From the IMG/VR virus record IMGVR_UViG_2576861478_000002: a stretch of DNA of 64,000 nt, one strand, 5' to 3'. The position numbers were made by a program, and so were the translations under genes. This stretch comes from a virus (taxonomy: Duplodnaviria; Heunggongvirae; Uroviricota; Caudoviricetes). Below the pieces are notes generated by a model, which worked only from the letters and a program-made list of their open reading frames with translations, was not told where the DNA came from and ran no database searches. Shown one piece after another: positions 23,768 through 64,000 of the stretch. How positions within the stretch are numbered: position 1 is the stretch's first letter; every line of letters starts with the position of its first letter.

Positions 23768-23805
23768 GACGAAATCTTTATTTGAGTAGAAAGAGAGGGA
23801 GTATC

Positions 23806-24333
23806 ATGGGTTACGCCAATAGAGGAATGTCATTTGAACTTTTATTAAACAATACATGCCGTATGTATAAAGCGGCAAATGTAGGAGTATTTAATAAGCG
23901 CCCTACACCAATAAAAGTGATAAAGACAGATAAGAAAGGCAATATAACTAAAAGTGCATGGGAAAGTAAATCTACAGTAGATTATGACGGTGTGTACAAA
24001 GGAAGAGCTGTTTATTTTGAAGCGAAATCTACTGAAAAAACCACGAGCTTCCCGTTAGATAATATAAGTAGGCACCAGATTGACTATTTAAAGGATACAC
24101 AAGAACAGGGAGCACTTTGTTTCTTTTTAATAGAATTCAGAACGGATCAGGTTATTTATTTTGTTCCTGTTTCTGTAGTAGCAGAATACTATGAAGCTAT
24201 GCTTTATGACGGAGGAAGAAAGTCTATTCCAAGAGAGGAATTTGAGAAAAGAGCGTATATAGTACCACAAACTAATAGAGCACCTGTTGATTATTTATAT
24301 CATGTAGATAAGTTAGGAATGGTTACTATATGA
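23806..24333 (+). CDS. recU: Holliday-junction resolvase RecU
   Basis: Strong similarity to B. subtilis RecU (YSNRGM..E..L; TTDYDGVYKGR..FEAK.T...SFPL.N...HQI..LK). Confidence 0.8.
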   Translation: MGYANRGMSFELLLNNTCRMYKAANVGVFNKRPTPIKVIKTDKKGNITKSAWESKSTVDYDGVYKGRAVYFEAKSTEKTTSFPLDNISRHQIDYLKDTQEQGALCFFLIEFRTDQVIYFVPVSVVAEYYEAMLYDGGRKSIPREEFEKRAYIVPQTNRAPVDYLYHVDKLGMVTI

Positions 24334-25454: not shown

Positions 25455-25490
25455 AAAAGAGGACGCTTATATGGCGTCCTTTATGGTGTA
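25455..25490 (-). terminator. terminator for hicAB (bidirectional hairpin AGGACGC..GCGTCCT)
   Basis: Perfect 7 bp stem flanked by A and T runs. Confidence 0.5.
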
Positions 25491-25906
25491 TTCTTTTTTT
25501 CTTTATATCCTAAATGCTTTTCTAATGCTTCTACAAGCATTTCAGAGAAATTGACATTTTGATTTGCTGCATGTTCTTCCAACCAAGAAGGAAGAGTAAC
25601 ATTTTTTCTTTTGTAAACTGTACTATCTTTTTTTCTAAGTGGTGGCATCCAAACATCGATTAAAATAGAGTATTCATTTGACTCTAATTTTGGTTTTAAC
25701 CATTTTATTGACATTGGCTCTGGAAGTGTATCATTATCTTTCTCCATTTCAGATAAATGGAGTCCTAATGCTTCTCTAGCTTCTTTTAAAGCATCTTCTT
25801 GTGTATCGGCAAAAGATGTACAACCAGGGAGATCAGGAAAGTAAATACCAAAGCCATCAGAAGATTGTTCTAAGACAGCTGGATAAATATAATAGTCTTT
25901 TTTCAT
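25481..25906 (-). CDS. hicB: HicB-family antitoxin (RNase-H-like fold + C-terminal RHH)
   Basis: YPAVLEQSSDGFGIYFPDLPGCTSFADTQEDALKEAREAL signature. Sits downstream of hicA. Confidence 0.85.
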   Translation of the reverse strand: MKKDYYIYPAVLEQSSDGFGIYFPDLPGCTSFADTQEDALKEAREALGLHLSEMEKDNDTLPEPMSIKWLKPKLESNEYSILIDVWMPPLRKKDSTVYKRKNVTLPSWLEEHAANQNVNFSEMLVEALEKHLGYKEKKNTP

Positions 25907-46506: not shown

Positions 46507-48362
46507 GTGTGCCAGGCATGGCAACTATCTAGGTGGTGGAAGTCCACTGTGGGGGTACACATCGACCAACCACTAAGGAAGCGCAAGGTACTTACCGTGA
46601 GGTTAGGGCTGGAGGAAGCGTGGAATAAAATCTTGGCTCGACGAACAGAAACCTGATATGAAGGCTTTATAAAGGGATGAGGCTCCATAACAAGTTAAAG
46701 TCCAAAAGATGTGCGTAACTTTGTAGAGTAAATCAGGCGAGTAAAAGAGGAAAGATAGTTGCCTTACCCTGGGAGATCTTGCGGATGTACTAACAGTACA
46801 GTCGAAAATGGTTAACCGCAAGAAGTCAGCCGAAGCCATAGTAGTGGAACAAATTCATGAAGGGCCGAACAGTTTATAGTGTTTCAACGCCATGAATGCG
46901 TAAGTGACATACTCCGAATATGTTAATGATGAAAGTATGAGCGTATCTCAAAGGATAATCAAAATGGAGTTGTCACTTACTACGTGAAGGGAAAGGAGAA
47001 ACGAGTGTGGAACTCTTAGAAGCAATTTTAAGCAACAAAAATATGAATGAAGCCTACTTACGCGTTTATAAAAACAAAGGTGTTAGTGGAGTTGATGGTG
47101 TAACAGTCGAAGAACTAAAGCAATATCTGAAAGAGCACAAGGACGAGCTACGTCAGCGCATTAGAACAAGGAAATACCAACCACAAGCTGCCTTAAGAGT
47201 GGAAATCCCAAAAGAGAATGGCAAGATGCGCAAGCTGGGAATACCAACAGTAGTGGATAGAGTCGTTCAACAAGCCATTCATCAAATACTCAGCCCGATA
47301 TTTGAGAAGCAGTTCAGTGAATTCAGTTATGGTTTTAGACCAAAAAGAAGTTGTGAGATGGCAATTGTTAAAAGCTTGGAATTTCTAAACAACGGATATG
47401 ATTGGATAGTAGATATTGATTTGGAGAGATTCTTTGACACAGTTCATCACGATAAATTGATGCGAATTATATCTAACTCAATACATGACGGAGACGTCAT
47501 CTCTCTCATAAGAAAGTATCTAGTCAGTGGAGTTATGGTGAATGGGAAATATGAAGAAACACCAGTCGGAACTCCGCAAGGAGGCAATCTCAGCCCTTTA
47601 CTGAGTAACATTATGTTGAACGAACTGGATAAGGAACTCGAGGGTAGAGGACTTCAATTTGTGAGATACGCTGATGACGCTCTTATCTTTGTGAGGAGTG
47701 AGAAGGCAGCGGGCAGAGTGATGAAATCAATCGTGAGATTCATAGAAAAGAAACTAGGCTTGATAGTCAATACAGAAAAGAGTAAAATCTCTCGGCCAAA
47801 AGATTTAAAATTTTTAGGGTTTGGATATTATTACACCCTCAAGGATAAGAGATATCAAACGAAACCACATCCAATCTCGGTACAAAAATTTCAAAGAAAA
47901 TTGCACCAACTGACAAAACGAAGCTGGAGTGTACCGTTAGACTATCGAATATTGAAACTTAAACAAGTGATATTTGGATGGGTCAATTACTTCAGGAGTA
48001 CAAATATGAAAGGTGTTCTGGAGCGAGTAGACCAGAAGCTCCGCTCCAGAATTAGGGTGATTATCTGGAAGCAATGGAAAGTACCGAAGAAACAAATCAA
48101 ATCGCTTGTTCAACTAGGGATTCCGGAGGAAGAAGCGAAGGGATTAACCTACTGTCGAAAGGGCTTCCGATATATAGGGTTATCGAAAGTTGTTCAAAGA
48201 GCCATCTCAAATCAAAGACTAAAGAAGAGGGGAGTCCCTTCTTCTTTAGAACGCTATCTAAAAGTTCACACTGTAATATAAACTGAACCGCCGTATACGG
48301 AACCGTATGTACGGTGGTGTGAGAGGGGCGAGAATAATTACTTTATTTTCCCTCTACTCGAT
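46507..48362 (+). mobile_element. group II intron, bacterial class C (IIC) type
   Basis: 5' GUGUG directly after a terminator. ~500 nt GC-rich domain I-III region. RT/maturase ORF in domain IV. Domain V-like ACCGCCGUAUACGGAACCGUAUGUACGGUGGU at 48286..48317. Domain VI with a bulged A ~48356. 3' end is +/-5 nt. Confidence 0.8.
47007..48281 (+). CDS. group II intron reverse transcriptase/maturase (no En domain)
   Basis: RT blocks 0-7 incl. YADD (FVRYADDALIF). X/maturase region present. Ends at domain V. Confidence 0.9.
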   Translation: MELLEAILSNKNMNEAYLRVYKNKGVSGVDGVTVEELKQYLKEHKDELRQRIRTRKYQPQAALRVEIPKENGKMRKLGIPTVVDRVVQQAIHQILSPIFEKQFSEFSYGFRPKRSCEMAIVKSLEFLNNGYDWIVDIDLERFFDTVHHDKLMRIISNSIHDGDVISLIRKYLVSGVMVNGKYEETPVGTPQGGNLSPLLSNIMLNELDKELEGRGLQFVRYADDALIFVRSEKAAGRVMKSIVRFIEKKLGLIVNTEKSKISRPKDLKFLGFGYYYTLKDKRYQTKPHPISVQKFQRKLHQLTKRSWSVPLDYRILKLKQVIFGWVNYFRSTNMKGVLERVDQKLRSRIRVIIWKQWKVPKKQIKSLVQLGIPEEEAKGLTYCRKGFRYIGLSKVVQRAISNQRLKKRGVPSSLERYLKVHTVI

Positions 48363-48627: not shown

Positions 48628-49560
48628 ATGGAAATCAGAAAAAAATTAGTTGATTCAAGTAAATATGGTACAAAGTGTCCTTATACAATGAATCCGGAAT
48701 TTATTACAGTCCACAATACTTACAACGATGCTACAGCAGAAAACGAAGTAGCTTATATGATTCGTAATGATAACCAAGTTTCATTTCATGTTGCGGTAGA
48801 TGATAAAGAAGCTGTACAAGGTCTGCCTTTAGAGCGTAATGCATGGGCTTGTGGTGATGGAAACGGTTCAGGTAATCGAGAGTCTATTAGTGTAGAAATC
48901 TGTTATTCTTTAAGTGGTGGAGAGAGATATTATAAAGCGGAAGACAATGCAACTATCGTTGTAGCTCAACTAATGAAACAGTACAATATTCCAATTCATA
49001 AAGTCCGTACACATCAATCATGGAGTGGGAAGTACTGTCCTCACCGTATGTTGGCAGAAGGACGTTGGACTAACTTTATTGAAAGAGTCCAAAATGCATG
49101 CAATGGAGATGGTAAAGTAACTCCTACGCTTATTCCACCGTCAAATAATGGGACAGGTATTGCGTATATTGAGGGGAATGGCATTAACCTTCGTAAAGGT
49201 CCAGGTACTGGATATGGCGTTATTCGTCAATTAGGTAAAGGTGAGGCCTACGAAGTATGGGGCCAATCAAATGGATGGTTAAACCTTGGTGGCGATCAGT
49301 GGATTTATAATGATTCATCATACATTCGTTATACAGGAGGAAAAGTACCAGCATCTTCTAAACCTTTAAATGATGGCGTTGGTGTAGTGACTATTACAAC
49401 TGATGTATTACGTGTTCGTAAAGGTCCAGGAACTAACTATGGCATCGTGAAAAAAGTGTATCAAGGTGAAAAATATCAAACGTGGGGATATAGAGACGGT
49501 TGGTATAATGTTGGAGGCGACCAATGGGTTTCTGGTGAATATGTGAAGTTTGAAAAATAA
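48628..49560 (+). CDS. endolysin: N-acetylmuramoyl-L-alanine amidase (PGRP/amidase_2) + two SH3b-like wall-binding repeats
   Basis: Amidase_2 motifs in the N-terminal ~160 aa. Duplicated GNGINLRKGPGTGYGV..WxxxNGWxNxGGDQW modules. Confidence 0.9.
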   Translation: MEIRKKLVDSSKYGTKCPYTMNPEFITVHNTYNDATAENEVAYMIRNDNQVSFHVAVDDKEAVQGLPLERNAWACGDGNGSGNRESISVEICYSLSGGERYYKAEDNATIVVAQLMKQYNIPIHKVRTHQSWSGKYCPHRMLAEGRWTNFIERVQNACNGDGKVTPTLIPPSNNGTGIAYIEGNGINLRKGPGTGYGVIRQLGKGEAYEVWGQSNGWLNLGGDQWIYNDSSYIRYTGGKVPASSKPLNDGVGVVTITTDVLRVRKGPGTNYGIVKKVYQGEKYQTWGYRDGWYNVGGDQWVSGEYVKFEK

Positions 49561-49720
49561 AACATATTACTGTATAAAAGAATAGTTTTATAAAAAATAT
49601 TATCTGATTCTATAGGTAGGTACGTATATCTTGACTATTATATTTGCAAATGTTACCATAAATGTACACCGTTTCTTATTTTTATATTTATGGTAAGTAT
49701 CCGTAAAATTAACCTAAAAA

Positions 49721-49765
49721 ATCCCCTCTTGCACTCATATGCAGAAGGGGATTTTTATTTTAATT
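49721..49765. terminator. bidirectional terminator
   Basis: AAAAATCCCCTCTTGCACTCATATGCAGAAGGGGATTTTTATTTT. Confidence 0.55.
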
Positions 49766-49835
49766 TGCTTTTAATATAGGGTTTATGATTGGAGCCTATG
49801 TGTATGTGAAATAGGGAATAGAAAAAAAGCATTCG

Positions 49836-49868
49836 TCCCCAAGAATGCTTTTTTTCAATAGATTTATC
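49836..49868 (+). terminator. terminator
   Basis: AAGCATTC..GAATGCTT followed by TTTTTT. Confidence 0.45.
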
Positions 49869-50172
49869 ATAAAAGGAGAAAAAATCACTGTCCATTTTAT
49901 TATATGTAGGTACACCGTGTAATATGCGAAAAAGACACCTTCCCCAGTTGAAGCTGTCTTTTTCGTGTTGAAAGTTCTTTAGATGTCAATTATAGAGTAT
50001 GCAGTTTACATACACTATATTCCACAATACCCCATGCGCTCCCCTGATAAACACAGTTATGTCATAAAAGTTGTTGGCAATCGCCCGATCTTTCACAAGT
50101 TGTGGGATGTGTAAACCAAGTTTTGCGCGTGGGTGATTATTTTATATCTTCCTGTGTATCTCGTCAAGTTGT

Positions 50173-50373
50173 TTAGAATAACGAGAGTTGTTCACCTTCT
50201 ATTTGTTGAACGTCTATTTGCCATTGGTATAGGTTACCCATTCTTCTTTTTAATTCAGTTTCTATTCCGTGTTTTGCATGCTCAACTGTTGGTGCGTAAA
50301 TTTCAATAAACTTTTCTTTGTATTGTTGCCCACTGGGAGAGAAAACACTATAAACGATTTGATATTTTTTCAT
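50173..50373 (-). CDS. hypothetical protein
   Basis: Isolated minus-strand ORF with an AGGTGATACAGC-like RBS. Confidence 0.3.
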   Translation of the reverse strand: MKKYQIVYSVFSPSGQQYKEKFIEIYAPTVEHAKHGIETELKRRMGNLYQWQIDVQQIEGEQLSLF

Positions 50374-50743
50374 GCTGTATCACCTCGAAAGTTGTATAGA
50401 TAGCAGTATAGCAACTGTATTGTTAGTATGGTAAAGAGATGTGGTTTTTAACAACCTATTGGAAAAAGAAAAAACACCTCATTATGAAGTGTCTTTTCCT
50501 GTGTTTCAATCCAAAAGAAAGATGACAGAACTACAATTCTTGTAAGACACCAAAAGGGAACTACAGAGATGTATTCTCAATAAGGGTATATAACAGCACA
50601 TAGAGTAGGGCAAGTATTACTAAGATATTCCCGGGCAACAAATTGGAGAAGTAAATCGTCGTATTAATGATAACCGAAATCGTTTTAAAGATACTGTAGA
50701 TATTATTGATATTAGGGCTAATGGGTTTGAGCCATTAGGTCGA

Positions 50744-51310
50744 TTGGCTGGATATACAAAACAATCATTTAATCAATCGAAGAACATCTACCTCCTCTCC
50801 GAACGAGGATACGCAAAGCTTTTAAAAATCCTTGAAGATGATACAGCATGGGAATTATACGATCAGTTTGTAGATGGATATTTCAATATGAGAGAACAGA
50901 AACAAATCCCTACAGACCCAATGAGTATTTTAAAACTAACATTTGATGCGTTAGAAGGACAAAAGCAAGAACTCCAGCACATCAAATCAGATGTCAAAGA
51001 CTTACGAGAAAACGCACCATTATTCGCAGTAGAGTGCGATGAAATATCCAATGCAGTAAAACGTTATGGTGTTGTATTACTTGGTGGTAAGAATTCTAAT
51101 GCTTATCAAGACCGTGGTTTGAGATCAAAAGTTTATAAAGACATCTATAGACAGTTGTATAGAGAGTTTGGAGTAACAAGTCATAAAGCGATTAAACGTG
51201 GTCATTTGGAGTTAGCATCAAAAATCGTTGAAGAATACACATTACCAATTGTATTAAGTGAAGAAATTACTTTTGTAAATTCACAAATAAATATGGCGGT
51301 AGTTCAGTAG
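50744..51310 (+). pseudogene. N-terminally truncated antirepressor (KilA-C/ORF6C domain only); duplicate of the ant 3' part
   Basis: ~520 bp ~90% identical to 16830..17348. Homology continues upstream in frame, without a start and with a stop at 50621. No RBS. Confidence 0.5.
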
Positions 51311-55729: not shown

Positions 55730-56152
55730 ATGAAACCTACATTTGAAATGATAAAGAATGAACATGGTGGGGTTGAGATGACTTATACAACGAGTGGAGG
55801 GAAGCAATCTTCCACTTACTTCCCTGGTCCTCCAGAAGATATAGATCATGTTTGCTTGGACTATATGAAAGGTCGCTTTGCAAACGTTAGAACGTTGAAG
55901 CAAGTAGAATTTATAAAACGAAAATATAAAGAAGCTTATCAAACAGTATTCGGTGCAATGGAAGAATTAAAAGCAGGTGACAAGGTAGTGATGCACACTT
56001 GCTTAGAAGCGAAGCGTTATGAGGGAAAAGTTTGGACTTGTAGAACAGATCAATTTAAAGCAAATAGTGGTTCGCAAGTGGTGTTTTTAGAAGGATTTAG
56101 TGGTTACTTCTCAGTTAAGTATTTGCAGCGTATTAGCTTGTTAGAAAACTAA
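55730..56152 (+). CDS. hypothetical protein
   Basis: AAAAGGGGAACGGAA RBS. Confidence 0.45.
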   Translation: MKPTFEMIKNEHGGVEMTYTTSGGKQSSTYFPGPPEDIDHVCLDYMKGRFANVRTLKQVEFIKRKYKEAYQTVFGAMEELKAGDKVVMHTCLEAKRYEGKVWTCRTDQFKANSGSQVVFLEGFSGYFSVKYLQRISLLEN

Positions 56153-56327
56153 ACAAAATAGTTATTTGAATAGAAAGGGAGAAAATATGGAACCTTCAAT
56201 AGAATCAATTAAGGCTAAATGTGACGAAGCTGTTGAAAATGCATTTACTAGTAACCCTTTAGTGATGTTAGAAGTAGATACAATTTATTGGTTAATTGAA
56301 AAGGCACAAGAAAAAGGAGAATAAGAT

Positions 56328-56594
56328 ATGGAATTTTATAAAATGTCTTTTGGCGGAGATCAGGATATAAAAGTTATCCTGGCCAATAGCAAATATGAAG
56401 CTGCAGGATATTATTTAATGCATTGTCATAATGGATGCGGATATATGGATGACGTGGTGTTAGAAACAATGCATCCAGATGAAAAAATTGAAGTTTCTTG
56501 TGTCGGATTTCCAGTATATCAAACATTAGAAGAATTATATAAAGAGAAAGAATTTGGTGATACACCATGCGTTATTGTCGGATTAGCAAATTAG
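56328..56594 (+). CDS. hypothetical protein
   Basis: AAAAAGGAGAA RBS. Confidence 0.4.
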   Translation: MEFYKMSFGGDQDIKVILANSKYEAAGYYLMHCHNGCGYMDDVVLETMHPDEKIEVSCVGFPVYQTLEELYKEKEFGDTPCVIVGLAN

Positions 56595-56631
56595 AAAACT
56601 AAACAAAATTCTTATTTTGGAGGGAAACGGA

Positions 56632-57030
56632 ATGGAAATAAAAGTGAATGAGCAAGCTCAACGTTTTTATCTAGCATTTGATGAATGGGTACCTGCAGTT
56701 GGTCATGAAATTAAAGTGGGAAAATATCGTTTTTGTGCTATTCCATTAAGTAAATCTATTAATATTTCAGAAGTAACATCTGGTGTACATGCTATGAGCA
56801 TTCCGATTGATTTTAGGATTTGGATGGCAACAAGTACTAAGGAAGATACAATGAGGTTTTTAGAAAAAGCAGGTGAAGGTTTAAAGCGAATCCTTAAAAG
56901 ACAAAGTAATTTAGATGAATTACTTAAAAAAAATAAAAAGATAGCATTTGATCGTTTGGGAGAAATGCCACCAATTGAAGATGTTGATACGGATTGGATA
57001 ACTGCTGAGATTAGTGATGTGACTCATTAA
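56632..57030 (+). CDS. hypothetical protein
   Basis: ATG after TTGGAGGGAAACGGA. Confidence 0.4.
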   Translation: MEIKVNEQAQRFYLAFDEWVPAVGHEIKVGKYRFCAIPLSKSINISEVTSGVHAMSIPIDFRIWMATSTKEDTMRFLEKAGEGLKRILKRQSNLDELLKKNKKIAFDRLGEMPPIEDVDTDWITAEISDVTH

Positions 57031-57316
57031 GTAATACAAAATCTTTATTTGAGAGGGGAACGAAATCGTGAAATATGATAAACAAGAATGTCCGAAATGT
57101 AGCAAGCCAGTTAAAACTTTATATAGACCATCAATGAGTCATAAAGGCCCAAATCTTTGCTATTGGTGTAATAAGAAACGTGTTAAAGAAGAAAAAGCAA
57201 TGAGCGCACAAAAATAATACAAAATCTCTATTTGAAAAACGAACAAAAAGCACTACTGGATCCAGTGATAGTTCGTGATTTAATACAAAATCGTTATTTG
57301 AAAGGAAGAATGAGGG

Positions 57317-57535
57317 ATGGATTTACAAAAGTTGCAAGAACTGAATGATCTTAGACTCACAATAGAAATGTACAACGATTTAATGGATAAATACGATGAT
57401 GAAGATTTCGTTTTAGAAAACTTAGATAACATTTTAAATGTTTTTCATTCAGTGCCACGTCTGGTTGAAGAAATTACATTATTACGGGAAGAGAATCAGC
57501 AATTGCAGTATGAGTTAAAAGAAGAAAGAATTTGA
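57317..57535 (+). CDS. hypothetical coiled-coil protein
   Basis: ORF with RBS. Confidence 0.35.
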   Translation: MDLQKLQELNDLRLTIEMYNDLMDKYDDEDFVLENLDNILNVFHSVPRLVEEITLLREENQQLQYELKEERI

Positions 57536-57570
57536 ACAAAAACGCTATTTTAGTATAAAATATTTAAAAA

Positions 57571-57605
57571 GAAGGACCCACATTAAGGGGGTGGGTCCTT
57601 TTAAC
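57571..57605. terminator. bidirectional terminator
   Basis: GGACCCAC..GTGGGTCC stem followed by TTTT. Confidence 0.5.
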
Positions 57606-57715
57606 AAAGCTAAGCATATAGAGATTAACTATATATTACTAAAAACGGATTGGGATTTCTATGTGTTAATTGTTGAGAAATAATTAATAAAAATTTCATT
57701 TTGTAGAAAAGGAGA

Positions 57716-57904
57716 ATGGATATGGTCATAGATCCACCAGAACCATACAAGCATAAAAATGGCACGGTTGTTCATTTAATGGAGGTTAATCCGAATGATT
57801 GGTACTGTTGGGCTAAATTTCCCGACGGTTACATCAAACCGGTATCAGAAGATGTTTTCTTTAGAGATTTTGAACCATTAAAAAGAGCAGCTAGCAAAAG
57901 CTAA
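57716..57904 (+). CDS. hypothetical protein
   Basis: AAAAGGAGAATGG RBS. Confidence 0.35.
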   Translation: MDMVIDPPEPYKHKNGTVVHLMEVNPNDWYCWAKFPDGYIKPVSEDVFFRDFEPLKRAASKS

Positions 57905-58154
57905 CTGTTCGGCTGGTTCTCCAAGGGGGAACAAGGAGAAAGTAACTTAATGGGTTGTCTACAGTATTGACGGAATATTGAGTTTTATTCAAGGGAGGAA
58001 GAAGAAATGAGTAAAGAACAAATATTAAAAAAAGAAATAATTAAATGGGTGAAAACTATGAATAGTGATGACCCAGAACAATTTAATTCATGTGTAATGG
58101 AATTGGAAGATATGTTGTTAGGATATATTGAGAAAAATATGGAGGTAGAGGGAA

Positions 58155-58358
58155 ATGAGAGCAAGATATTTTGAGTATATGGTTTCTTATACTTTTGGAA
58201 GTTATAAAGGAAACGGAAATGGGAGCATAATTTTAAAGTTTAATAGAAGGATAAATGGGCGCATGTTAAAAAAAGCAAAAGATCACATAGAAATGAACAA
58301 TAAATTTCAAAACGTTGTTATACAAAATTATAAATTATTAAGGGAATGTAGAAGTTAA
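58155..58358 (+). CDS. hypothetical protein
   Basis: GAGGTAGAGGGAA RBS. Confidence 0.35.
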   Translation: MRARYFEYMVSYTFGSYKGNGNGSIILKFNRRINGRMLKKAKDHIEMNNKFQNVVIQNYKLLRECRS

Positions 58359-58402
58359 AACCAAACAAAATAATCCTTTGAATAGAAAGTGAGGTTGGGA
58401 AA

Positions 58403-58684
58403 ATGGGAATGAGTGTAGAAGGTGTGAAATTCTATTTAGAAACACCCGATGGAGAAAGCGTGGAAATAAAGGGTGGTGTTGATTGGGCGGATACTTCTCC
58501 TGGTGAAACAGGTAATTATGATTTTGACTTTACTAAAGAAATAAGTGTGCCGTGCACTTTTGAAGAACCGCAAAATATAAAAGATCTGCAAGATATAGGT
58601 TTTACACCACCACAAGCATGGAATATTCATTTGCACAAAGGTGAGAGTTGGAAAGAAAACTCAAAAGCAAGTCTTTTAAAGTAA
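58403..58684 (+). CDS. hypothetical protein
   Basis: AGTGAGGTTGGG RBS. Confidence 0.4.
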   Translation: MGMSVEGVKFYLETPDGESVEIKGGVDWADTSPGETGNYDFDFTKEISVPCTFEEPQNIKDLQDIGFTPPQAWNIHLHKGESWKENSKASLLK

Positions 58685-58799
58685 ATTAAAAATCAATATT
58701 GTCCGGCTAGAAAACTAGAGGACACCAATTCACTAAAGCAGCAATTAAAGCTGTTTTAGGAATAGGTGTCCTGTTTATTTTGAAAAGGGAGAGGGGGAA

Positions 58800-59144
58800 A
58801 TGAAGGTGTTAAAGGATCAGCTGCGTGAATGGAAAAAGCAATCGAATCAAGCAAAGAAGAAAAAGAAGAAAAAACGAAAAGAGAAATTAAGTACTCGTGA
58901 AATTGAGGATTTAATGGGGATGCATAGACCTTGCTATGAACGAAGACGTGGAGCAATAAGACAAAGAGATATTATTTATAAACGTTATTTAGAAGAAGAG
59001 GACGTATGTGATTACATGGTTTATAACGAAATAGGGATGTCAGAGCGTACTTATCGCCGTTGGAAATCTAAAGCATTTTATAAGCTTGCTTTTGCACTTG
59101 GATTAGAAGTTTATGAGACAGAAGAGACTGGAGGTAATGAATAA
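58800..59144 (+). CDS. ArpU-like late transcription regulator
   Basis: C-terminal HTH MSERTYRRWKSKAFYKLAFAL; Lys/Arg-rich linker. Confidence 0.55.
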   Translation: MKVLKDQLREWKKQSNQAKKKKKKKRKEKLSTREIEDLMGMHRPCYERRRGAIRQRDIIYKRYLEEEDVCDYMVYNEIGMSERTYRRWKSKAFYKLAFALGLEVYETEETGGNE

Positions 59145-59686
59145 TGAATTTTGTTCAGCCGATACGTGATCCAGAAGAAATACAGCAGCTAAAAGAATAT
59201 TTTAAAGAAAAGAGCTTACGTAATTACATTCTCTTCATTATGGGAATCAATACAGGCCTGAGAATCTCAGACATTTTGAAATTGAAGGTTGGAGATGTCA
59301 AAGGTAGTCATATATCTATGAGAGAAAAGAAAACAGGGAAACAGAAACGAATACAAATTACTGCAGCACTGAAAAGAGAACTTAAATGGTTTATTGAAGA
59401 AAGAGAAGATAATGAGTATTTATTACAAAGTAGACAAGGGAAGAATCGTCCTATCGGGCGTAGCATGGCATATAAGATATTAAGTGGAGCAGCGGCAGAG
59501 TTTGGATTAGATGAAATAGGAACACATACACTGAGAAAGACGTATGGGTATCATATGTACATGCAAACAAAAAACATAGCATTACTCATGGAGATATTCA
59601 ATCATTCGTCAGAGAAGGTCACGTTACGTTATATAGGCGTAAACCAAGATGCAATGGATAAAGCAATGACTAGGTTTAAAATCTAA
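59144..59686 (+). CDS. tyrosine recombinase, catalytic domain only (180 aa)
   Basis: GLRISD (R), HTLRKT (HxxR), LRYIG (Y). No N-terminal core-binding domain. ATGA-coupled to the upstream regulator. Confidence 0.75.
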   Translation: MNFVQPIRDPEEIQQLKEYFKEKSLRNYILFIMGINTGLRISDILKLKVGDVKGSHISMREKKTGKQKRIQITAALKRELKWFIEEREDNEYLLQSRQGKNRPIGRSMAYKILSGAAAEFGLDEIGTHTLRKTYGYHMYMQTKNIALLMEIFNHSSEKVTLRYIGVNQDAMDKAMTRFKI

Positions 59687-60118
59687 GCATTGCTTTTTCT
59701 TTTTAAATCTATACAGTTACTCATAAATTTCGTACTGTGTAACTCAAAAGGGAAAGTTTAATTAAGTCAATAATATCAAGGGATTTGGCGAAGGGGTCAG
59801 TTACACACAATACAAGATATGGGTAACTCATTGGAGAAAGAACAGGGGAGATAAGCGGTTGCCAAAAACCACTGATTTGGGCAAAACAGTTGCAAAGAAT
59901 AAGTGAGGATATTGATAAGAAAAAATAAGTGGCAGAGTCGTGACCGCTTTTTGGCAGGATATGTACCGGTTGTTTTGGAAATACCGTGTTATATTTGTAT
60001 TGTGAGAAGTGGCGGAAAACACAACTCACTATGTTGTTTCTAAATTTCTAAACGATTCGTAATGATGGCACATAAAATCCGAAACCAGCAGATGGTACTG
60101 ATTAAGCGATACCGTTAT

Positions 60119-60236
60119 TAAGGAGAGCTTTTGCTCTTCTTTGAGCTAACAACATCCTAGGTAGACGGAATGAGGAGACCTGATAAGTCGGACAAGAGTT
60201 TCTGTCGTGGTTGTTAGTTGAGAGAAGAATAAAACT
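60119..60236 (+). other. conserved hairpin/mini-ORF element, copy B
   Basis: Shares its 29-mer and 12-mer with 25351..25421. Long complementary arms GCTCTTCTTTGAGCTAACAAC / GTTGTTAGTTGAGAGAAGAA. Mini-ORF MLFFELTTS. Confidence 0.3.
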
Positions 60237-60322
60237 TCATTTACCGTATGCGAATTTATTGTAAATAATAACGTTCTCTATACATTTGAAATTATATATC
60301 GATAAAAGGATGTTGTGTTTAT

Positions 60323-60622
60323 TTGTCGAAATATAGAATGATGGGAAGGGGGTGTGTAAGTATGGCTAGAACATTACATACAAAAGTTATTATGGACAGT
60401 GGTAAAGAATATGACCTTGATGTTCATCCAGAAGACTTTATGAGTCGTATCTCAAATGAAAAAGGGGAATTGTATAAGGGATTTGTTCATTTTTTTAACC
60501 TTTCAATAAATCCTCTACATGTATCTTCAATTGAGACCGTAGAAGTGAAAGTTGATGGAAGTTCAGGAGTTACTGCAAAGTATGTGCTTGAACCATTTGT
60601 TACAGGGATTAAAAGAGATTAG
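60323..60622 (+). CDS. hypothetical protein
   Basis: ORF with a GGGAAGGGGG RBS. Confidence 0.4.
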   Translation: MSKYRMMGRGCVSMARTLHTKVIMDSGKEYDLDVHPEDFMSRISNEKGELYKGFVHFFNLSINPLHVSSIETVEVKVDGSSGVTAKYVLEPFVTGIKRD

Positions 60623-60763
60623 GGAATAGTTAATATCTGAACAGTCGCTATCGATATAGATAGCGGCTTTTTATTTTGGAGGAGGATGAAGGGTGGATAA
60701 ACATTACGTAGAGCGGAATCTATAGATTCTATTAAATGTCGAGCAATTAAGGAGTGAGGATAG

Positions 60764-61168
60764 ATGTGTAATGTTTCTAGATGTTGTTTAGCTTGTGACT
60801 ATCAAATTAAAACTTATCAAGCGCCAGAAGATGAATATCAAGAAGTAACTGTTTGTCCGAAATGTAATGGTGCGTTTGTAGATATGTTTAAGTTAGAGAA
60901 GTACAAACAATCTAACGAGACTGTAGAACCTTTATTAACAATTACATTAACAGATATAGATGCTAAACCTATAGTTCATTACAAAGGTAAACAGATAGAT
61001 AGAAAGTTACGTGTTGCATTTGATTGGGAATCACAATCGATTGATAGGATTAATCGGACATACATTCATATTGAACATGTACCAGCTGATAATAAGCAAT
61101 TCAATACTGAAGTTATTCAGCACAATCATCCTATTGTGGAAGACCAAGTGGAGCTTTATCGGTTATGA
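60764..61168 (+). CDS. hypothetical zinc-ribbon protein
   Basis: CCLACDY..CPKCNG. Confidence 0.4.
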   Translation: MCNVSRCCLACDYQIKTYQAPEDEYQEVTVCPKCNGAFVDMFKLEKYKQSNETVEPLLTITLTDIDAKPIVHYKGKQIDRKLRVAFDWESQSIDRINRTYIHIEHVPADNKQFNTEVIQHNHPIVEDQVELYRL

Positions 61169-61500
61169 AAGAATACAAAACCAAACAACAGAAGCGTAAG
61201 TTCTATGACAGGGGTGAGTGGAAGAGTATACGAGAGCAAGTAAAGAAGAGAGACAACTATGAGTGCCAAGAGTGTAAACGTAACGGTCGAGTACAAACAG
61301 ATACCAATGAGTACAGTGAGAGTGCAAAGCGTAAGAAGATACAGCTCGTCGTCCATCATAAAAAAGAACTAGAACATCATCCAGAACTCGCATTGGAAAT
61401 AGACAATCTTGAAACAGTCTGTGTGGATTGCCATAATAAAGAACACGGTAGAACATTCGAAAAGAAACCGAATAAATGGGAAAACGATGAAAAGTGGTAA
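61165..61500 (+). CDS. HNH endonuclease (terminase-associated)
   Basis: CQECKRNG...HHKKELEHH...CVDCHNKEH. Confidence 0.85.
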   Translation: MKEYKTKQQKRKFYDRGEWKSIREQVKKRDNYECQECKRNGRVQTDTNEYSESAKRKKIQLVVHHKKELEHHPELALEIDNLETVCVDCHNKEHGRTFEKKPNKWENDEKW

Positions 61501-61516
61501 AACTGATTCAGAAACA

Positions 61517-61575
61517 ATCCCCCCCTTAAAATATTTCAATCTTTTTCGGGGAACGAGGCACCGGGGAGGGGGTCG
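61517..61575. other. candidate cos region (C7 run + CGGGGAACGAGGCACCGGGGAGGGGGTCG)
   Basis: Same architecture as the other two elements. Confidence 0.3.
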
Positions 61576-61650
61576 ATTTTTCAAATTTAGAACCAAATTC
61601 GCGCGTTATATTAAATTGGAAAACGATGTAAATCAGAAGGGAGGGATATT

Positions 61651-61986
61651 GTGGCTAGAGGGAAGCGTGAAACAATGAGAAAAAGGATTGAAAAGGATCT
61701 AACAAATCAATTAAAAGAAAAAAAGATTGTAGGTAATCATTATACTGACTTAATTCAAGACTATTTATCGTTGTGGGATTTAAAGTGTGTTCTTGTTGAT
61801 GATATTGAAGAAACAGGAATAAAAGTATCTGGCATGCATGGTCCGAAATCCAATCCTTCTATTAATGATTTACATAAAACAAATGATCGAATGATAAAGA
61901 TTTTAGATGCACTTGGATTAGAAGCATCGGCAGAAGAAAAGAAAGTTCCTTCAAAACCTGTGCGCTCAGTTAAAGATTTAACATGA
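61651..61986 (+). CDS. terminase small subunit (P27 family)
   Basis: Family pattern. Confidence 0.75.
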   Translation: MARGKRETMRKRIEKDLTNQLKEKKIVGNHYTDLIQDYLSLWDLKCVLVDDIEETGIKVSGMHGPKSNPSINDLHKTNDRMIKILDALGLEASAEEKKVPSKPVRSVKDLT

Positions 61987-63641
61987 TTCAAAATAATTAT
62001 GTCACTGAATATATTGAGATGTATCGCGCAGGGAAAATTAAGCTGAATAAAGAGCGCATAATGCTAATTGAGTACCTGGAGAAATACATTTTAATACGCG
62101 ATGATTTGTATTTCGATAATGAAATGCATGAGGACTATATAAAATTCACTGAGAAATGGTACTTTGAATTGCAAGCATTTCAAAAGTTCCTAACAGCATT
62201 CGTTTTTCTTTTCTATAAAGAAGATGATTCTGTTTTTTACGAGCAATTTTTAATTATGATGGCTCGTGGTGGTGGTAAAAACGGTTTAATTTCATCATTA
62301 TGCCATTTCTTTATTAGTCCGCTGCACGGAATAGATCGATACAATGTTTCAATTGTGGCGAACAACGAGAAACAGGCCAAAGTTTCTTTTCGTGAAGTCT
62401 ATGATGCTATTAAAGGAAAAGAAATACTAGAAGATATGTTTTATCGAACCAAGGTAGAGATACTGAGTAACGATACGCAAAGCATTATTCAATATCATAC
62501 ATCTAATGCTGGTTCTAAGGATGGACTTCGTGACGGTTGTGTTATTTACGATGAAATACATCGATATGAAAACTTTGATGTAGTAAATGTATTCTCTAGT
62601 GGACTTGGAAAAGTGCCAAATGCTAGAGAATTTTTTATTGGTACAGATGGCTTTGTCCGCGATGGATTCCTGGACAAAACAAAAGAGCGGGCGATGAATA
62701 TTCTAAAGGGGAAAGATTTAGAAGATCCATTATTCCCTTTCATTTGCAAGATAGATAATCCAGAAGAAATTGATAATCCTGATGTATGGGAAAAAGCGAA
62801 TCCGATGTTTAGCGAGCCGAGAAGTTCTTATGCTAAACAATTATTTAAAAAGGTATTAACTCAATATAAACAATTAGAAAATAATCCTTCAAACCGTGAA
62901 GAATTCATAACAAAACGTATGAATTATCCTGAAACAGATTTAACAAAGTCTGTAGCTTCATGGGAAGAAATCATGCGTACTGGTTTTGAAGAAGATGGGG
63001 AAACGCTCAGAGAGGTTCCAGATTTAAAACATAAAGTAGCTGTAGGCGGACTCGACTTCGCCAGCATTAAAGACTTTGCTGCGGTTGGTCTACTCTTTAA
63101 ACATGGTGAAGATTATATATGGAAAGGTCATTCATTTGTACGTAAAGGATTTTTGGACAAGGTGAAATTAAAAGCACCTATATATGAATGGGCTGAAAAT
63201 GGCTTACTAACTATTGTGGATGAACCAGTTATTAATATCTCTCACATTGTAGATTGGTTTGTAAAAATGCGTGAGTTATACGGTGTTAATACGATTGTAG
63301 CCGATACATTCCGCCTTGATCTTGTCAAAACGGCACTTGAAGCTGAAGGATTTATATTGTTGTATATCCGTAATCCAAAGGCAATACATTCTCTTTTAGC
63401 ACCAAGAGTTGAAACGTTGTTTGCAAACAATCGCATTATTTTTGGAGATAATCCATTGATGCGTTGGTACACTAACAACGTCTACGTCCACATCAAAAAA
63501 GACGGCAACAAAGAGTATCTGAAAAAAGATGAATTTAAGCGTAAAACAGATGGATTTCAAGCTTTTATTCATGCGCTATGGCAAGCGGATAACATTCTTG
63601 TGGATGAATTCGACTTTATGCTAGATGGTATTAAATTCTAA
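61983..63641 (+). CDS. terminase large subunit
   Basis: Paralog of the other two terL genes. Confidence 0.9.
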   Translation: MIQNNYVTEYIEMYRAGKIKLNKERIMLIEYLEKYILIRDDLYFDNEMHEDYIKFTEKWYFELQAFQKFLTAFVFLFYKEDDSVFYEQFLIMMARGGGKNGLISSLCHFFISPLHGIDRYNVSIVANNEKQAKVSFREVYDAIKGKEILEDMFYRTKVEILSNDTQSIIQYHTSNAGSKDGLRDGCVIYDEIHRYENFDVVNVFSSGLGKVPNAREFFIGTDGFVRDGFLDKTKERAMNILKGKDLEDPLFPFICKIDNPEEIDNPDVWEKANPMFSEPRSSYAKQLFKKVLTQYKQLENNPSNREEFITKRMNYPETDLTKSVASWEEIMRTGFEEDGETLREVPDLKHKVAVGGLDFASIKDFAAVGLLFKHGEDYIWKGHSFVRKGFLDKVKLKAPIYEWAENGLLTIVDEPVINISHIVDWFVKMRELYGVNTIVADTFRLDLVKTALEAEGFILLYIRNPKAIHSLLAPRVETLFANNRIIFGDNPLMRWYTNNVYVHIKKDGNKEYLKKDEFKRKTDGFQAFIHALWQADNILVDEFDFMLDGIKF

Positions 63642-63658
63642 TAAAGGGGGTGATAATC

Positions 63659-64000
63659 ATTGGATGGCTAGATGCAGTATTTAAAAGAAATAGTGAAGTA
63701 GGATTTATGTTTGATGTGGAAATGTTTATTGAGAAAGCCAATAGAGTACACATGAAGCGACTGGCGATTGATACCTGTATATCCTTTTTAGGGAGAACAA
63801 TTAGTCAGTCAGAATTTAGAGTGAAAAATGGTGAAGAATTTGAAAAGGATGAGCTTTACTATCGATTAAATGTCAGACCGAATAAGAATATGACAGCAAG
63901 TACCTTTTGGGAGAGTTTCATTTACAAACTTATTTATGATAATGAAGCTTTGATTATACAAGCGGATGATGGTGATTTACTTATTGCTGATGACTTTGAA
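63659..64000 (+). CDS. phage portal protein, 5' part (apparent ATT start)
   Basis: MGWLDAVFKRN aligns with MGLFNKIFGRK of the prophage-2 portal. The NVRPN.NMTA block is conserved. AAAGGGGG RBS lies 8 nt before the ATT. Runs off the window. Confidence 0.65.
   Translation, partial: MGWLDAVFKRNSEVGFMFDVEMFIEKANRVHMKRLAIDTCISFLGRTISQSEFRVKNGEEFEKDELYYRLNVRPNKNMTASTFWESFIYKLIYDNEALIIQADDGDLLIADDFE

Follow-up and report, generated by a model that had tools for sequence, protein, structure and literature searches.

Known tyrosine recombinase systems

The TnpI/IRS module of Tn4430, a Tn3-family transposon of Bacillus thuringiensis, consists of a recombinase gene and an adjoining site of about 116 bp containing four motifs: the inverted pair of the core and two accessory motifs, which give the system its selectivity for resolution. 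TnpI has 284 aa, including an N-terminal domain, and its accessory motifs are direct repeats. FimB and FimE, tyrosine recombinases of very small size (about 200 aa), have their genes beside a non-coding control region upstream of an operon. Cre has 343 aa and clamps the DNA with two domains, and its target, loxP, has no known accessory site. To our knowledge, no tyrosine recombinase without a core-binding domain has a described recombination site. MrpR and YopR of SPbeta are not known to recombine DNA. They have been described as phage proteins related to tyrosine recombinases and used in gene control (PMC10516654).

The Cre/loxP system of phage P1 resolves dimers of the phage replicon (PMC8138268). 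Single-recombinase Xer modules (XerS/difSL, XerH/difH and archaeal XerA/dif) have one recombinase gene adjacent to its own site, which is built of two inverted arms of roughly 11 bp and a centre of 6-11 bp (PMC5357621). The core of cer comprises 30 bp, arranged 11+8+11 (PMC5357621). The enzymes of these single-recombinase modules contain a core-binding domain and reach about 290-360 aa, and their sites are chromosomal, located near the replication terminus, with no accessory dyad.

The gene analysed here lies in a 64-kb window (the whole stretch of 64,000 nucleotides that was examined). It is a direct homologue of p22 of phage phIS3501 and of the PHROG 216 "integrase", placed in the same family and, like them, following ArpU. 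In the phIS3501 paper, what this "second integrase" does was described as not clear (PMC3335513). Our literature search found no functional study of the short recombinase, and a search for the sequence of the site described below retrieved solely an unrelated paper on cavefish. Short "integrases" of this type are annotated in thousands of prophages of Bacillus, Streptococcus, Clostridioides and Listeria, where they are routinely taken for integration genes or ignored.

The recombinase gene and its product

The gene (59144..59686, + strand) is an ORF of 180 aa with matches to PF00589 and phrog_216. The PF00589 profile aligns residues 10-167 of the protein with 5-169 of its 172 positions, at a score of 84.3 bits (cut-off 27.1; E value 1e-23), and the phrog_216 profile covers residues 1-179 (E value 4.6e-73). 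All the catalytic residues can be recognized in the sequence (R40, K63/K66, H128-x-x-R131, H154 and Y163), and each of them is invariant in an alignment of seven homologues, 180-202 aa long, that share 37-57% identity with the window protein. Position 59144 is the earliest possible start codon 3′ of the in-frame stop, and GGAGG is located 9 nt upstream of this ATG. The protein begins at the catalytic domain, leaving no space for a core-binding domain; the N-terminal arm-binding and core-binding domains of canonical integrases (of the lambda Int or Tn916 Int type) are absent. The closest solved structure by sequence is that of XerA (4a8e), and the alignment spans only residues 117-277, i.e. its catalytic domain, which sets the protein apart from the two-domain XerC/D, XerS, XerH and XerA. 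Judged from its sequence, the 180-aa product is a tyrosine recombinase that consists of the catalytic domain alone; its active site is intact, and it is apparently enzymatically active. The earlier note, which had described a protein with R, HxxR and Y residues and no N-terminal core-binding domain, was correct in both respects.

PHROG 216 is, as far as the compared sequences indicate, a large family of uniform length (about 180 aa) in temperate phages of Bacillus, Streptococcus and Clostridioides. The homologue covers at least 80% of the query in 221 of the 227 phage records that contain one, and of the 7,955 protein clusters with E ≤ 1e-5, the best 120 consist almost without exception of proteins of 171-183 aa. 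In size, the family amounts to hundreds of phages and thousands of protein clusters. A protein identical to that of the window is indexed in 328 blocks of a public assembly collection.

The short protein might have arisen by decay of a full-length integrase, or be a passenger devoid of function. The state of the host prophage, with its truncated activator and missing left end, is consistent with this, as are the disrupted copies in two relatives: Athena has a stop at codon 98, and in L098 no more than 26 aa of the recombinase remain. Such decay is nevertheless contradicted for the family as a whole, and scarcely credible for this copy. The short form is the native one, because the length of about 180 aa is uniform, the catalytic residues are invariant and synteny is conserved across genera. 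The window copy is, moreover, identical to copies in prophages with an intact ArpU gene, and a Pfam search for an N-terminal integrase fragment encoded upstream of the gene found none. The earlier note had named the discovery of such a fragment as the result that would overturn its interpretation.

Gene order and the upstream ORF

In every locus examined (the window and phages of Bacillus, Streptococcus and Clostridioides), the recombinase gene is located between a late-activator gene and the HNH/terminase operon. This agrees with the placement in a late-control region that had been assigned to it previously; the gene is far from the prophage ends. The activators encoded 5′ of the gene are of several types: ArpU, DUF722-like, DUF1492-like and sigma-70 region 4. 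A comparison of the window with the Streptococcus pneumoniae phage IPP43 revealed 52% identity for the recombinases, against 24% for TerL, 23% for HNH and no detectable relationship for TerS, the activators belonging to different families. By this measure the recombinase is the sole well-conserved protein near the site across genera.

The placement typical of canonical integrases (at the prophage end, beside attP and the lysogeny module) is not observed for this gene, which lies between the early and late regions. Most phages of the family also carry a separate canonical integrase, e.g. Athena gp1, IPP43_00001 and phIS3501 p01. An FtsK-like gene is annotated in phiCM3 and has been discussed for phIS3501. 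In phage Athena the recombinase gene has a nonsense codon at position 98; since this phage is viable, the gene is dispensable for its plaque growth.

Phages from the B. cereus group without the recombinase gene encode the RecU Holliday-junction resolvase at the equivalent position, and none of the listed recombinase-positive phages was among the RecU-positive Bacillus phages. The other prophage of the window, as had been noted before, has no homologue of the short recombinase family; what it has instead is a RecU resolvase and a canonical integrase ORF of 365 aa. No resolvase family occurred among the 25 most frequent PHROG families in 114 ORFs upstream of the gene at 12 loci, a count restricted to PHROG families with at least three members.

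The ORF immediately upstream (58800..59144, + strand; 114 aa) had been regarded as an ArpU-like gene, which proved to be incorrect. Its PHROG matches are split (residues 1-56, to phrog_3928, and residues 48-111), and the second part was assigned by aligning the product with intact ArpU from phiCM3 and from Athena. The ORF is a fusion in which a small phrog_3928 protein is joined in frame to the C-terminal 59 aa or so of an ArpU-family late activator. According to blastn comparison with the intact prophage L383, which is 99.7-99.9% identical to the window prophage on either side, the fusion was created by a deletion of 332 bp, with the junction at about 58962-58965. A look-up of the exact 114-aa protein found no record.

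The two ORFs do overlap, as previously described, but by a single nucleotide and not by ATGA: the junction is TAATG (stop TAA 59142-59144, ATG 59144-59146). The ATGA overlap is found in relatives, e.g. phiCM3, BtCS33, phIS3501 and PfEFR-5. The window offers no case of translational coupling with a working ArpU regulator, because the neighbouring ORF is a deletion-fusion remnant in a defective prophage. Nor is coupling a trait of the family: gaps of 160-257 bp separate the activator and recombinase genes in Streptococcus and Clostridioides phages. With its late activator truncated and its left end missing, the window prophage is defective, and the recombinase gene and site within it are intact but probably idle.

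A candidate recombination site downstream of the gene

Inspection of the region downstream of the gene revealed a 30-bp candidate core recombination site (59799..59828, + strand), composed of 11-bp inverted arms (AGTTACACACA and TATGGGTAACT) around an asymmetric 8-bp spacer (ATACAAGA) of the form ATA(C/T)AAGA. It starts 112 bp past the recombinase stop codon. The 11-8-11 dyad was first found in three loci, at +112 in the window, +103 in IPP43 and +115 in the C. difficile phage phiCD6356. A loose form of the pattern was then surveyed in 139 non-redundant loci collected by three independent searches. In 99 of these loci, across genera, the recombinase gene is followed by a forward copy (at +80 to +170 in 67 of them), and 62 of the 99 have ATATAAGA as spacer. 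The 506 kb of downstream sequence contained 103 forward and 4 reverse copies, and the remaining 1,123 kb of the same loci 12 forward and 7 reverse copies; these counts overstate the independence of the observations, because the pattern was refined on the surveyed family and the loci are related by descent. About 29% of the loci are without the pattern, e.g. PfEFR-5, phiCD38-2, 315.1 and 268TH007. The 64-kb window has a single copy, in forward orientation. In all of the prophage loci examined the core, the recombinase gene and the late genes are contiguous.

A second, accessory dyad (59715..59744, + strand; AGTTACTCATA, AATTTCGT and ACTGTGTAACT) combines the half-sites of the core with another spacer; its start is 84 bp upstream of the core. 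Bacillus, Streptococcus and Clostridioides-type lineages have equivalent dyads with lineage-matched half-sites, placed at a constant phase (84-87 or 109-110 bp) upstream of the core, and half-site-like 9-mers are more numerous in the 110 bp upstream of the core (245) than in the 110 bp downstream (76). The half-sites of both dyads co-vary, lineage by lineage (e.g. AGTTAC, AATTAC, AATTAG, AGTTTA, AACACA and AAGGAT). RNA hairpins were considered as an explanation of the dyads and judged unlikely, because the four half-sites change in parallel between lineages. Together the two dyads span 114 bp (59715-59828). The region at 59.7-60.3 kb, which had been suggested for recombination assays, does contain the candidate site, in this segment. 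The core is a candidate cognate site of the recombinase, apparently not described before.

The arrangement combines features of several known systems. As in the single-recombinase Xer modules, one recombinase gene adjoins its own putative site; the protein, however, has the catalytic domain alone, and the site is phage-borne and accompanied by a second dyad 84 bp away. With Cre/loxP it shares a phage-encoded tyrosine recombinase, a single nearby site and an asymmetric 8-bp spacer (loxP being arranged 13-8-13), whereas P1 is a plasmid prophage and most of the phages considered here also have a canonical integrase. A core with accessory sites to one side, as in the resolution systems TnpI/IRS and XerCD/cer, is found here as well, and the four half-sites in 114 bp are comparable with the four motifs in about 116 bp of the TnpI/IRS site.

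Cargo cassettes between the gene and the site

The sequence AAATCTATAC (59708..59712) marks an empty insertion point. Exactly at this position, about 30 of 80 related Bacillus loci carry a cargo cassette of 0.5-3.3 kb. Most of the inspected cassettes have Tn3-like terminal inverted repeats of 36-38 bp, of the GGGG...ACGYTAAG type, which we take to be typical of the Tn3 family; an initial assumption that the ends resemble those of IS231/MIC231 was dropped, as the Tn3-family layout presumably fits better.

These cassettes raise the question of whether the recombinase could be an integron-like cassette (moron) integrase that captures cargo just upstream of the accessory dyad. Diverse cargo is indeed found at the same nucleotide position, in one orientation, between the gene and the accessory dyad. 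In data with one genome per species, exact copies of the cassette end were followed by the dyads in 6 of 6 cases, and ArpU was located upstream in 5 of the 6 (four with a full and one with a truncated recombinase gene), the sixth locus being too short upstream to show it. We nevertheless regard this role as highly improbable. The cassette ends are flanked by a duplication of 3-6 bp and look like products of transposition, the junctions and the target have just CTA in common, an identity too short to allow a tyrosine recombinase to exchange strands, a small plasmid that has no recombinase contains similar ends and cargo, and the insertion point is outside both dyads. The attC-bounded cassettes at an attI site that define integrons (IntI) were not found, and the 180-aa protein presumably has no space for the additional IntI-specific segment. 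The cassettes were rejected as substrates of the recombinase in favour of Tn3-like passenger elements.

Possible functions of the recombinase and its site

The recombinase and the site probably constitute a self-contained recombination module, and not a broken integrase. The reading that we prefer, to which we would assign slightly less than an even chance, is that of a resolution module resembling Cre/loxP, Xer/dif or TnpI/IRS, which would act on multimers of the phage replicon. Four recombinase protomers would occupy the four half-sites, with cleavage and strand exchange at the edges of the core spacer, and the accessory dyad would steer the reaction to directly repeated copies on one molecule, resulting in resolution. 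The natural substrates would be multimers, because each phage genome has one such site; these could be (i) circular dimers arising during theta replication, (ii) dimers of a plasmid-state prophage or (iii) tandem copies. We infer the binding of the dyads by the recombinase, rather than by the neighbouring activator, as well as the cut positions, the resolution outcome and the benefit to the phage. Alternatively, the dyads could be bound by the adjacent late activator or by another phage protein.

Resolution at a local site was among the roles suggested in the earlier note, and the conserved core and accessory dyad directly downstream of the gene would fit it. The nonsense codon of Athena is more in keeping with an accessory role in maintenance than with a late function that is essential, and the presence of RecU at the equivalent position in sister phages is circumstantial support for a resolution module.

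Some properties of these phages sit less easily with resolution. The need for multimer resolution in an integrating cos phage is not obvious, and conversion of late concatemers to monomer circles could hinder cos packaging. Nor would resolution explain why the gene is constantly placed between late activator and late promoter.

A different function is suggested by this same place in every locus examined, since the protein could regulate the late switch: it would bind the dyads and help, time or block late transcription, alone or with the activator, recombination being secondary or absent. The dyads are located 170-270 bp upstream of a conserved promoter-like motif (described below), and MrpR/YopR of SPbeta is described as a recombinase-like repressor (PMC10516654). 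The complete catalytic set is, however, invariant in the family analysed here; the retention of all these residues in distant members, including the tyrosine nucleophile, would be unexpected for a pure DNA-binding regulator. The site, moreover, resembles a recombination core, with inverted arms and a conserved asymmetric spacer, and the plaques of Athena indicate that the protein is no essential late activator there, so that we consider a regulatory role unlikely. Recombination of the site with a similar one elsewhere (in a resident prophage, in a phage infecting the same cell, or the dif of the host), leading to IMEX-like integration or to shuffling of early and late modules, would account for two further observations: homology between related phages often stops where the core has its right edge (59826-59832), and the spacer ATATAAGA is common to phages of different genera. 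The right arm and centre of some family sites, e.g. TATGTTAAACT in phiCD6356, also resemble what we take to be the XerD arm of dif. It is quite unlikely, however, that integration or exchange is the function, since the contiguity of the recombinase gene, the site and the late genes means that none of the examined prophages was integrated via the site, most of the phages have a separate canonical integrase, and an accessory dyad is typical of resolution sites and not of exchange sites.

The distribution of RecU points to yet another role, in which the protein would replace RecU or RusA as a branch or junction resolvase, recognizing structure more than sequence, and would clear intermediates or make and resolve dimers before cos packaging. 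Both the shared position, with the two genes not found together in the listed Bacillus phages, and the lack of a common resolvase family upstream of the recombinase at the 12 loci agree with it; the sample behind them is small, consists of related phages and excludes PHROG families of fewer than three members. A conserved, sequence-specific site argues for site-specific action, junction resolution by a tyrosine recombinase in the absence of its own site is not known to us, and the gene is dispensable in Athena, all of which makes such a function very unlikely. Inversion, the other recombination role put forward in the earlier note, would require a FimB/FimE-like enzyme that inverts a segment with a promoter, located between the recombinase gene and the late operon. 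The protein is as small as the Fim recombinases, its gene adjoins a non-coding region upstream of an operon, and a 10-nt inverted repeat (CACAATACAA at about 59805-59814 and TTGTATTGTG at about 59996-60005) flanks approximately 180 bp. Inversion nevertheless appears extremely improbable. FimB and FimE need two inverted sites flanking a segment, whereas the window has one forward and no reverse copy of the core, and downstream sites in general are overwhelmingly forward (103 against 4). The 10-nt match is not conserved in relatives, and the blastn matches of the tested segments are all in + orientation (88 of 88 matching related loci), with no inverted segment. The AT-rich core centre and the promoter-like motif were rejected as partners of an inversion, as their likeness is not conserved and neither inverted copies nor inverted orientations were found.

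The preferred reading, resolution of replicon multimers, can be extended to the family as a whole. The catalytic-domain-only recombinase and its two-dyad, 114-bp res-like site may be an unrecognised module, very widespread at the early/late junction of temperate Firmicutes phages. It would resolve multimers of phage genomes that are replicating or in the plasmid state, might also form dimers for cos packaging, and would in this way control their multimer state; it would further stand in for the RecU-type junction resolvases of sister phages. Such a module would show that site recognition and recombination can proceed without a core-binding domain. This broader proposal, which draws on comparison of sequences, is possible but doubtful.

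The oriented 30-bp core with its phased accessory dyad provides a concrete target for the family and makes its function testable. Should the protein prove to recombine the site, it would rank as roughly the smallest site-specific tyrosine recombinase that is self-sufficient, posing the mechanistic question of how DNA is clamped without a core-binding domain and offering a compact tool for genome engineering. A step of replicon topology would also be added to the early-to-late transition of Gram-positive temperate phages, and the gene would be unfit as a marker of prophage ends in annotation pipelines.

Other sequence elements of the region

An inverted repeat with 21-nt arms (81% complementary), followed by a T-rich run, extends across the recombinase stop codon (59657..59699, + strand). 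It is conserved in relatives and possibly constitutes the end of the early transcript; it was not called in the terminator scan. The hairpin that had been reported after the gene is present at 60129-60234, 443 bp past the stop codon. A cos end at this hairpin was considered, as the phiCM3 record stops about 25 bp past its match to the window. The idea was dropped because BtCS33 runs through the same sequence, so the end of the phiCM3 record may be arbitrary. The RNA structure of the leader (59996-60250) was not significant (z = -1.4), and an Rfam scan of 56000-64000 (E ≤ 1) revealed nothing relevant.

The promoter-like motif TGTTATATTTGTATTGTGAGAA (59986..60008, + strand) is conserved and of the extended -10 type. 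It starts a conserved block of about 160 nt that ends in a terminator-like hairpin (about 60121-60145), and motif and block are probably the promoter and leader of the late operon. The same promoter-like 20-mer is located downstream of the recombinase gene in Streptococcus phage IPP43, and it was found 218-3662 bp past a recombinase gene in 83 of 119 viral contigs.

The short recombinase gene and its product

The region 58800-59686 is occupied by two + strand ORFs, of 114 aa (58800-59144) and 180 aa (59144-59686). The second, identified by an ORF scan, encodes the short recombinase; it cannot be longer, because an in-frame stop lies upstream and no other start codon intervenes, and GGAGG is located 9 nt upstream of its ATG. 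Residues 10-167 of the protein match positions 5-169 (of 172) of the Pfam model of the tyrosine-recombinase catalytic domain (PF00589, E 1e-23), and the protein also matches PHROG 216, labelled "integrase" (E 5e-73). The closest solved structure by sequence is archaeal XerA (4a8e), aligned over its catalytic-domain residues 117-277 only; in this match the N-terminal domain of XerA has no counterpart in the 180-aa protein. The near end-to-end PF00589 match and the confinement of the XerA match to the catalytic domain bear out an earlier note, in which the protein was described as a tyrosine recombinase reduced to this domain. The catalytic residues mentioned there are likewise present: in an alignment of the window protein with six homologues sharing 37-57% identity with it (lengths 180-202 aa), R40, H128/R131 and Y163, as well as K63, K66 and H154, are invariant. 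Catalysis thus appears to be under selection in this family.

In approximately 50,700 phage records searched with tblastn, the short recombinase was found in 227, with at least 80% of the protein covered in 221 of them; Streptococcus (128), Clostridium/Clostridioides (38) and Bacillus (28) account for most of the records. A large protein collection yielded 7,955 clusters at E <= 1e-5 (nearly all 171-183 aa among the matches listed), and an index of public assemblies contains the identical protein in 328 blocks. The earlier note had named decay of a full integrase as the finding that would refute its reading, but a domain search revealed no integrase N-terminal domain in the ORFs directly upstream of the gene. 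This result, the family-wide length of about 180 aa and the invariant catalytic residues rule out a decayed fragment, and the comparison indicates that the short form is the native one. Nothing sets the protein apart within its family, which is very common and already annotated, and for which no function is reported in the literature searched.

Genomic position and state of the prophage

The gene follows a late activator in the Bacillus phages phiCM3, BtCS33, phIS3501, PfEFR-5 and Athena, in Streptococcus phages IPP43 and 315.1, and in phiCD6356 and phiCD38-2 of C. difficile. In most of these phages non-coding sequence and small ORFs come next, ahead of HNH, TerS and TerL. The upstream activators belong to differing families (ArpU, DUF722-like, DUF1492-like, sigma-70 region 4). 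When the window is compared with S. pneumoniae phage IPP43, amino acid identity is 52% for the recombinase, 24% for TerL and 23% for HNH, and TerS shows no similarity; judged by these values, no other protein of the region comes close to the recombinase in conservation. As noted earlier, the other prophage of the window has no equivalent of this gene; RecU (23782-24333; PF03838, E 1.5e-48) precedes the late regulators there, in the position that the short recombinase has in the second prophage.

The gene immediately upstream in the window proved not to be the ArpU-like gene assumed previously. PHROG matches and alignment revealed that the 114-aa ORF (58800-59144, + strand) is an in-frame fusion, with a junction at about 58962-58965: residues 1-56 match phrog_3928, a small protein of unknown function, and residues 48-111 correspond to the C-terminal portion of ArpU-type activators (phrog_248, profile positions 82-148 of 161). 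Compared with the 161-aa ArpU of phiCM3 and Athena, it lacks the first ~100 residues. The intact prophage L383, with 99.7-99.9% identity to the window on either side, has separate, intact genes for the small protein and for a 160-aa ArpU; relative to it, 332 bp are absent from the window, a deletion that took the end of the phrog_3928 gene and the first ~100 ArpU codons. No database record of the exact fusion protein was found. The overlap with the recombinase gene is TAATG and not ATGA, because the TAA (59142-59144) and the ATG (59144-59146) share one base. The activator and recombinase genes of intact Bacillus relatives share 1 or 4 nt; a gap of 160-257 bp lies between them in the phages of Streptococcus and Clostridioides.

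From 49144 onward the window is 100% identical to GCA_000688795.1 (CP004858.1). The match to the intact prophage starts only at 50624, and to the left of this position lies the endolysin gene of the other prophage (48628-49560) instead of a repressor/integrase module. Beyond the window, some structural (head, tail) genes of the GCA_000688795.1 record are shorter than in intact relatives. The recombinase gene thus resides in a defective prophage, because the left-end module is missing and structural genes are shortened. With no repressor/integrase module at its left end (49560-50744; L388), the prophage looks like a defective remnant. With a fused neighbour and a defective prophage, the translational coupling to a regulator proposed earlier has no functional meaning in the window copy.

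Candidate recombination site

Within the 145 bp following the recombinase stop codon, an inverted-repeat search revealed a pair of imperfect palindromes that resemble each other and are spaced 84 bp apart: site 1, an accessory dyad (59715-59744; AGTTACTCATA-AATTTCGT-ACTGTGTAACT), and site 2, the candidate core (59799-59828; AGTTACACACA-ATACAAGA-TATGGGTAACT). Both are kept in Bacillus relatives, with symmetric double changes (e.g. AATTAC...GTAATT in phIS3501), and the same 11-8-11 layout is found at +103 in IPP43 (AATTGGATAAA-ATATAAGA-TATAACTAATT) and at +115 in phiCD6356 (AGTTTAACAGA-ATATACCT-TATGTTAAACT).

We surveyed 139 non-redundant loci, obtained in three independent searches of viral contigs, with the loose pattern N6-A[CT]ANA-N8-TAT[AG]N-N6 (at least 4 of 6 outer positions complementary). 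A forward copy is present within 4.5 kb after the stop codon in 99 of the 139 loci, and in 67 of these it lies at +80 to +170. The downstream sequences (506 kb) contain 103 forward versus 4 reverse copies, and the surveyed loci elsewhere (1,123 kb) 12 forward and 7 reverse. Sixty-two loci carry ATATAAGA as the core spacer, and 13 carry ATATTAGA. Site 2 is the single match in the window, and two RecU-type phages without the short recombinase gave none. With its constant orientation and a spacer that is both asymmetric and conserved, this sequence looks like a recombination core.

In nearly every lineage a second dyad is located 84-87 bp (109-110 bp in some) upstream of the core and shares its lineage-specific half-sites, e.g. 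AACACAACA/CGTTGTGTT with core AACACAACA...TGTTGTGTT, or AAGGATACA/TGTATTGTT with core AAGGATACA...TGTATTGTT. The 110 bp preceding the core contain 245 half-site-like 9-mers, and the 110 bp following it contain 76. The co-changing of the four half-sites points to one sequence-specific protein, which would bind as dimers on two phased dyads. No paper describing the site sequence in a phage context was found in the literature searched, and the two-dyad candidate site appears to be undescribed so far; it makes the function of the short recombinase family directly testable.

Proposed function

We tentatively propose, with slightly less than even confidence, that the short recombinase binds these elements, occupying the four half-sites, and that strand exchange at the core spacer would resolve multimers of the phage replicon. 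We propose this because the layout, with one recombinase gene, an adjacent core of 11-bp arms around an 8-bp spacer and a one-sided accessory site, matches multimer-resolution modules. The closest analogues are presumably Cre/loxP of P1 and TnpI/IRS of Tn4430, and we know of no demonstrated case of site recognition by a lone catalytic domain. In single-recombinase Xer systems the gene and the site form one module, and the 30-bp core of cer consists of 11+8+11 bp, accompanied by accessory sequences (PMC5357621).

Further support is circumstantial. The RecU Holliday-junction resolvase is encoded just before the late regulators in the other prophage and in further B. cereus-group phages without the short recombinase, and RecU-positive and recombinase-positive phages of this group do not overlap among the phages listed. 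No resolvase was found among the 25 most frequent families of the 114 ORFs upstream of the recombinase gene in 12 loci. In vB_BanS_Athena (L002, 6806-7348) codon 98 of the gene is a stop, and the annotation divides the gene into two CDSs. Athena was isolated as a viable temperate phage and retains its canonical integrase and AimR gene; the recombinase is thus dispensable for plaque growth in this phage, as would be expected of an accessory role in maintenance more than of a late function that is essential.

The dyads might instead be bound by another protein. The interpretation in the earlier note is supported in part: of the roles it suggested, local resolution fits the data best; DNA inversion is not supported, since the window contains no inverted partner of the site and all matched segments are in + orientation in the 88 loci giving a match. 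A regulator of late transcription would suit the position of the gene, but the invariant catalytic tyrosine and the Athena mutant speak against this role. Against integration at a dif-like or prophage site stands the contiguity of the module in all prophages seen.

The recombinase might also capture cassettes between its gene and site 1. About 30 of 80 Bacillus loci carry cargo inserts of 0.5-3.3 kb exactly there (window ~59708-59712), always in one orientation, encoding hydrolases, a CspA-like cold-shock protein, a permease, a metalloprotease, a nucleoside hydrolase, a SpoVS-like protein and IS4 transposase fragments. Most, however, are bounded by GGGG...ACGYTAAG-type inverted repeats of 36-38 bp and a target duplication of 3-6 bp, cassettes and target have only CTA in common, and a small plasmid without the recombinase bears similar ends and cargo, all of which speaks against recombinase substrates. 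The cassettes look like Tn3-family passenger elements favouring this spot; we take the repeats to be Tn3-family-like. Some transposons target res sites, and, by this analogy, the exact, oriented hot spot beside the dyads may, speculatively, hint at a protein-DNA complex there.

The comparison behind this hot spot includes loci L014-L080, L093 and L095-L100; in the window the spot is empty. A copy of the right cassette repeat (87% identity) is also present in the B. cereus megaplasmid pE33L466 (L094, 3215-5061), about 125 nt after group II intron ltrA, with neither the short recombinase nor the dyads nearby.

Downstream non-coding block and other features

A strongly conserved non-coding block (59925-60150) contains the promoter-like TGTTATATT (extended -10), followed by ~130-150 nt of conserved sequence and a terminator-like hairpin, AAGGAGAGCTTTTGCTCTTCTTT; its 20-mer TGTTATATTTGTATTGTGAGAA recurs 3' of the recombinase gene in Streptococcus phages. 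The arrangement is reminiscent of phage lambda, whose late genes are preceded by a short terminated leader. Rfam gave no match in the block. The conserved hairpin mentioned in the earlier note does exist, as an inverted repeat at 60129-60234 (inverted-repeat search; 25-nt arms with 80% complementarity, 56-nt loop). Because its left arm shares sequence with the 3' half of the terminator-like hairpin, only one of the two structures can form at a time. Folding of the RNA from 59996-60250 gave no significant gain in stability over shuffled sequence (z = -1.4).

In the first prophage, a 424-aa ORF (47007-48281) between the tail and holin/endolysin genes reads, from its translation alone, like a group II intron reverse transcriptase/maturase. 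The same prophage carries a HicB-like antitoxin-family gene (25481-25906, - strand) with the late regulators on one side and the HNH/terminase genes on the other; phages lacking the short recombinase therefore also take up cargo in the slot that separates late regulators from late operon.
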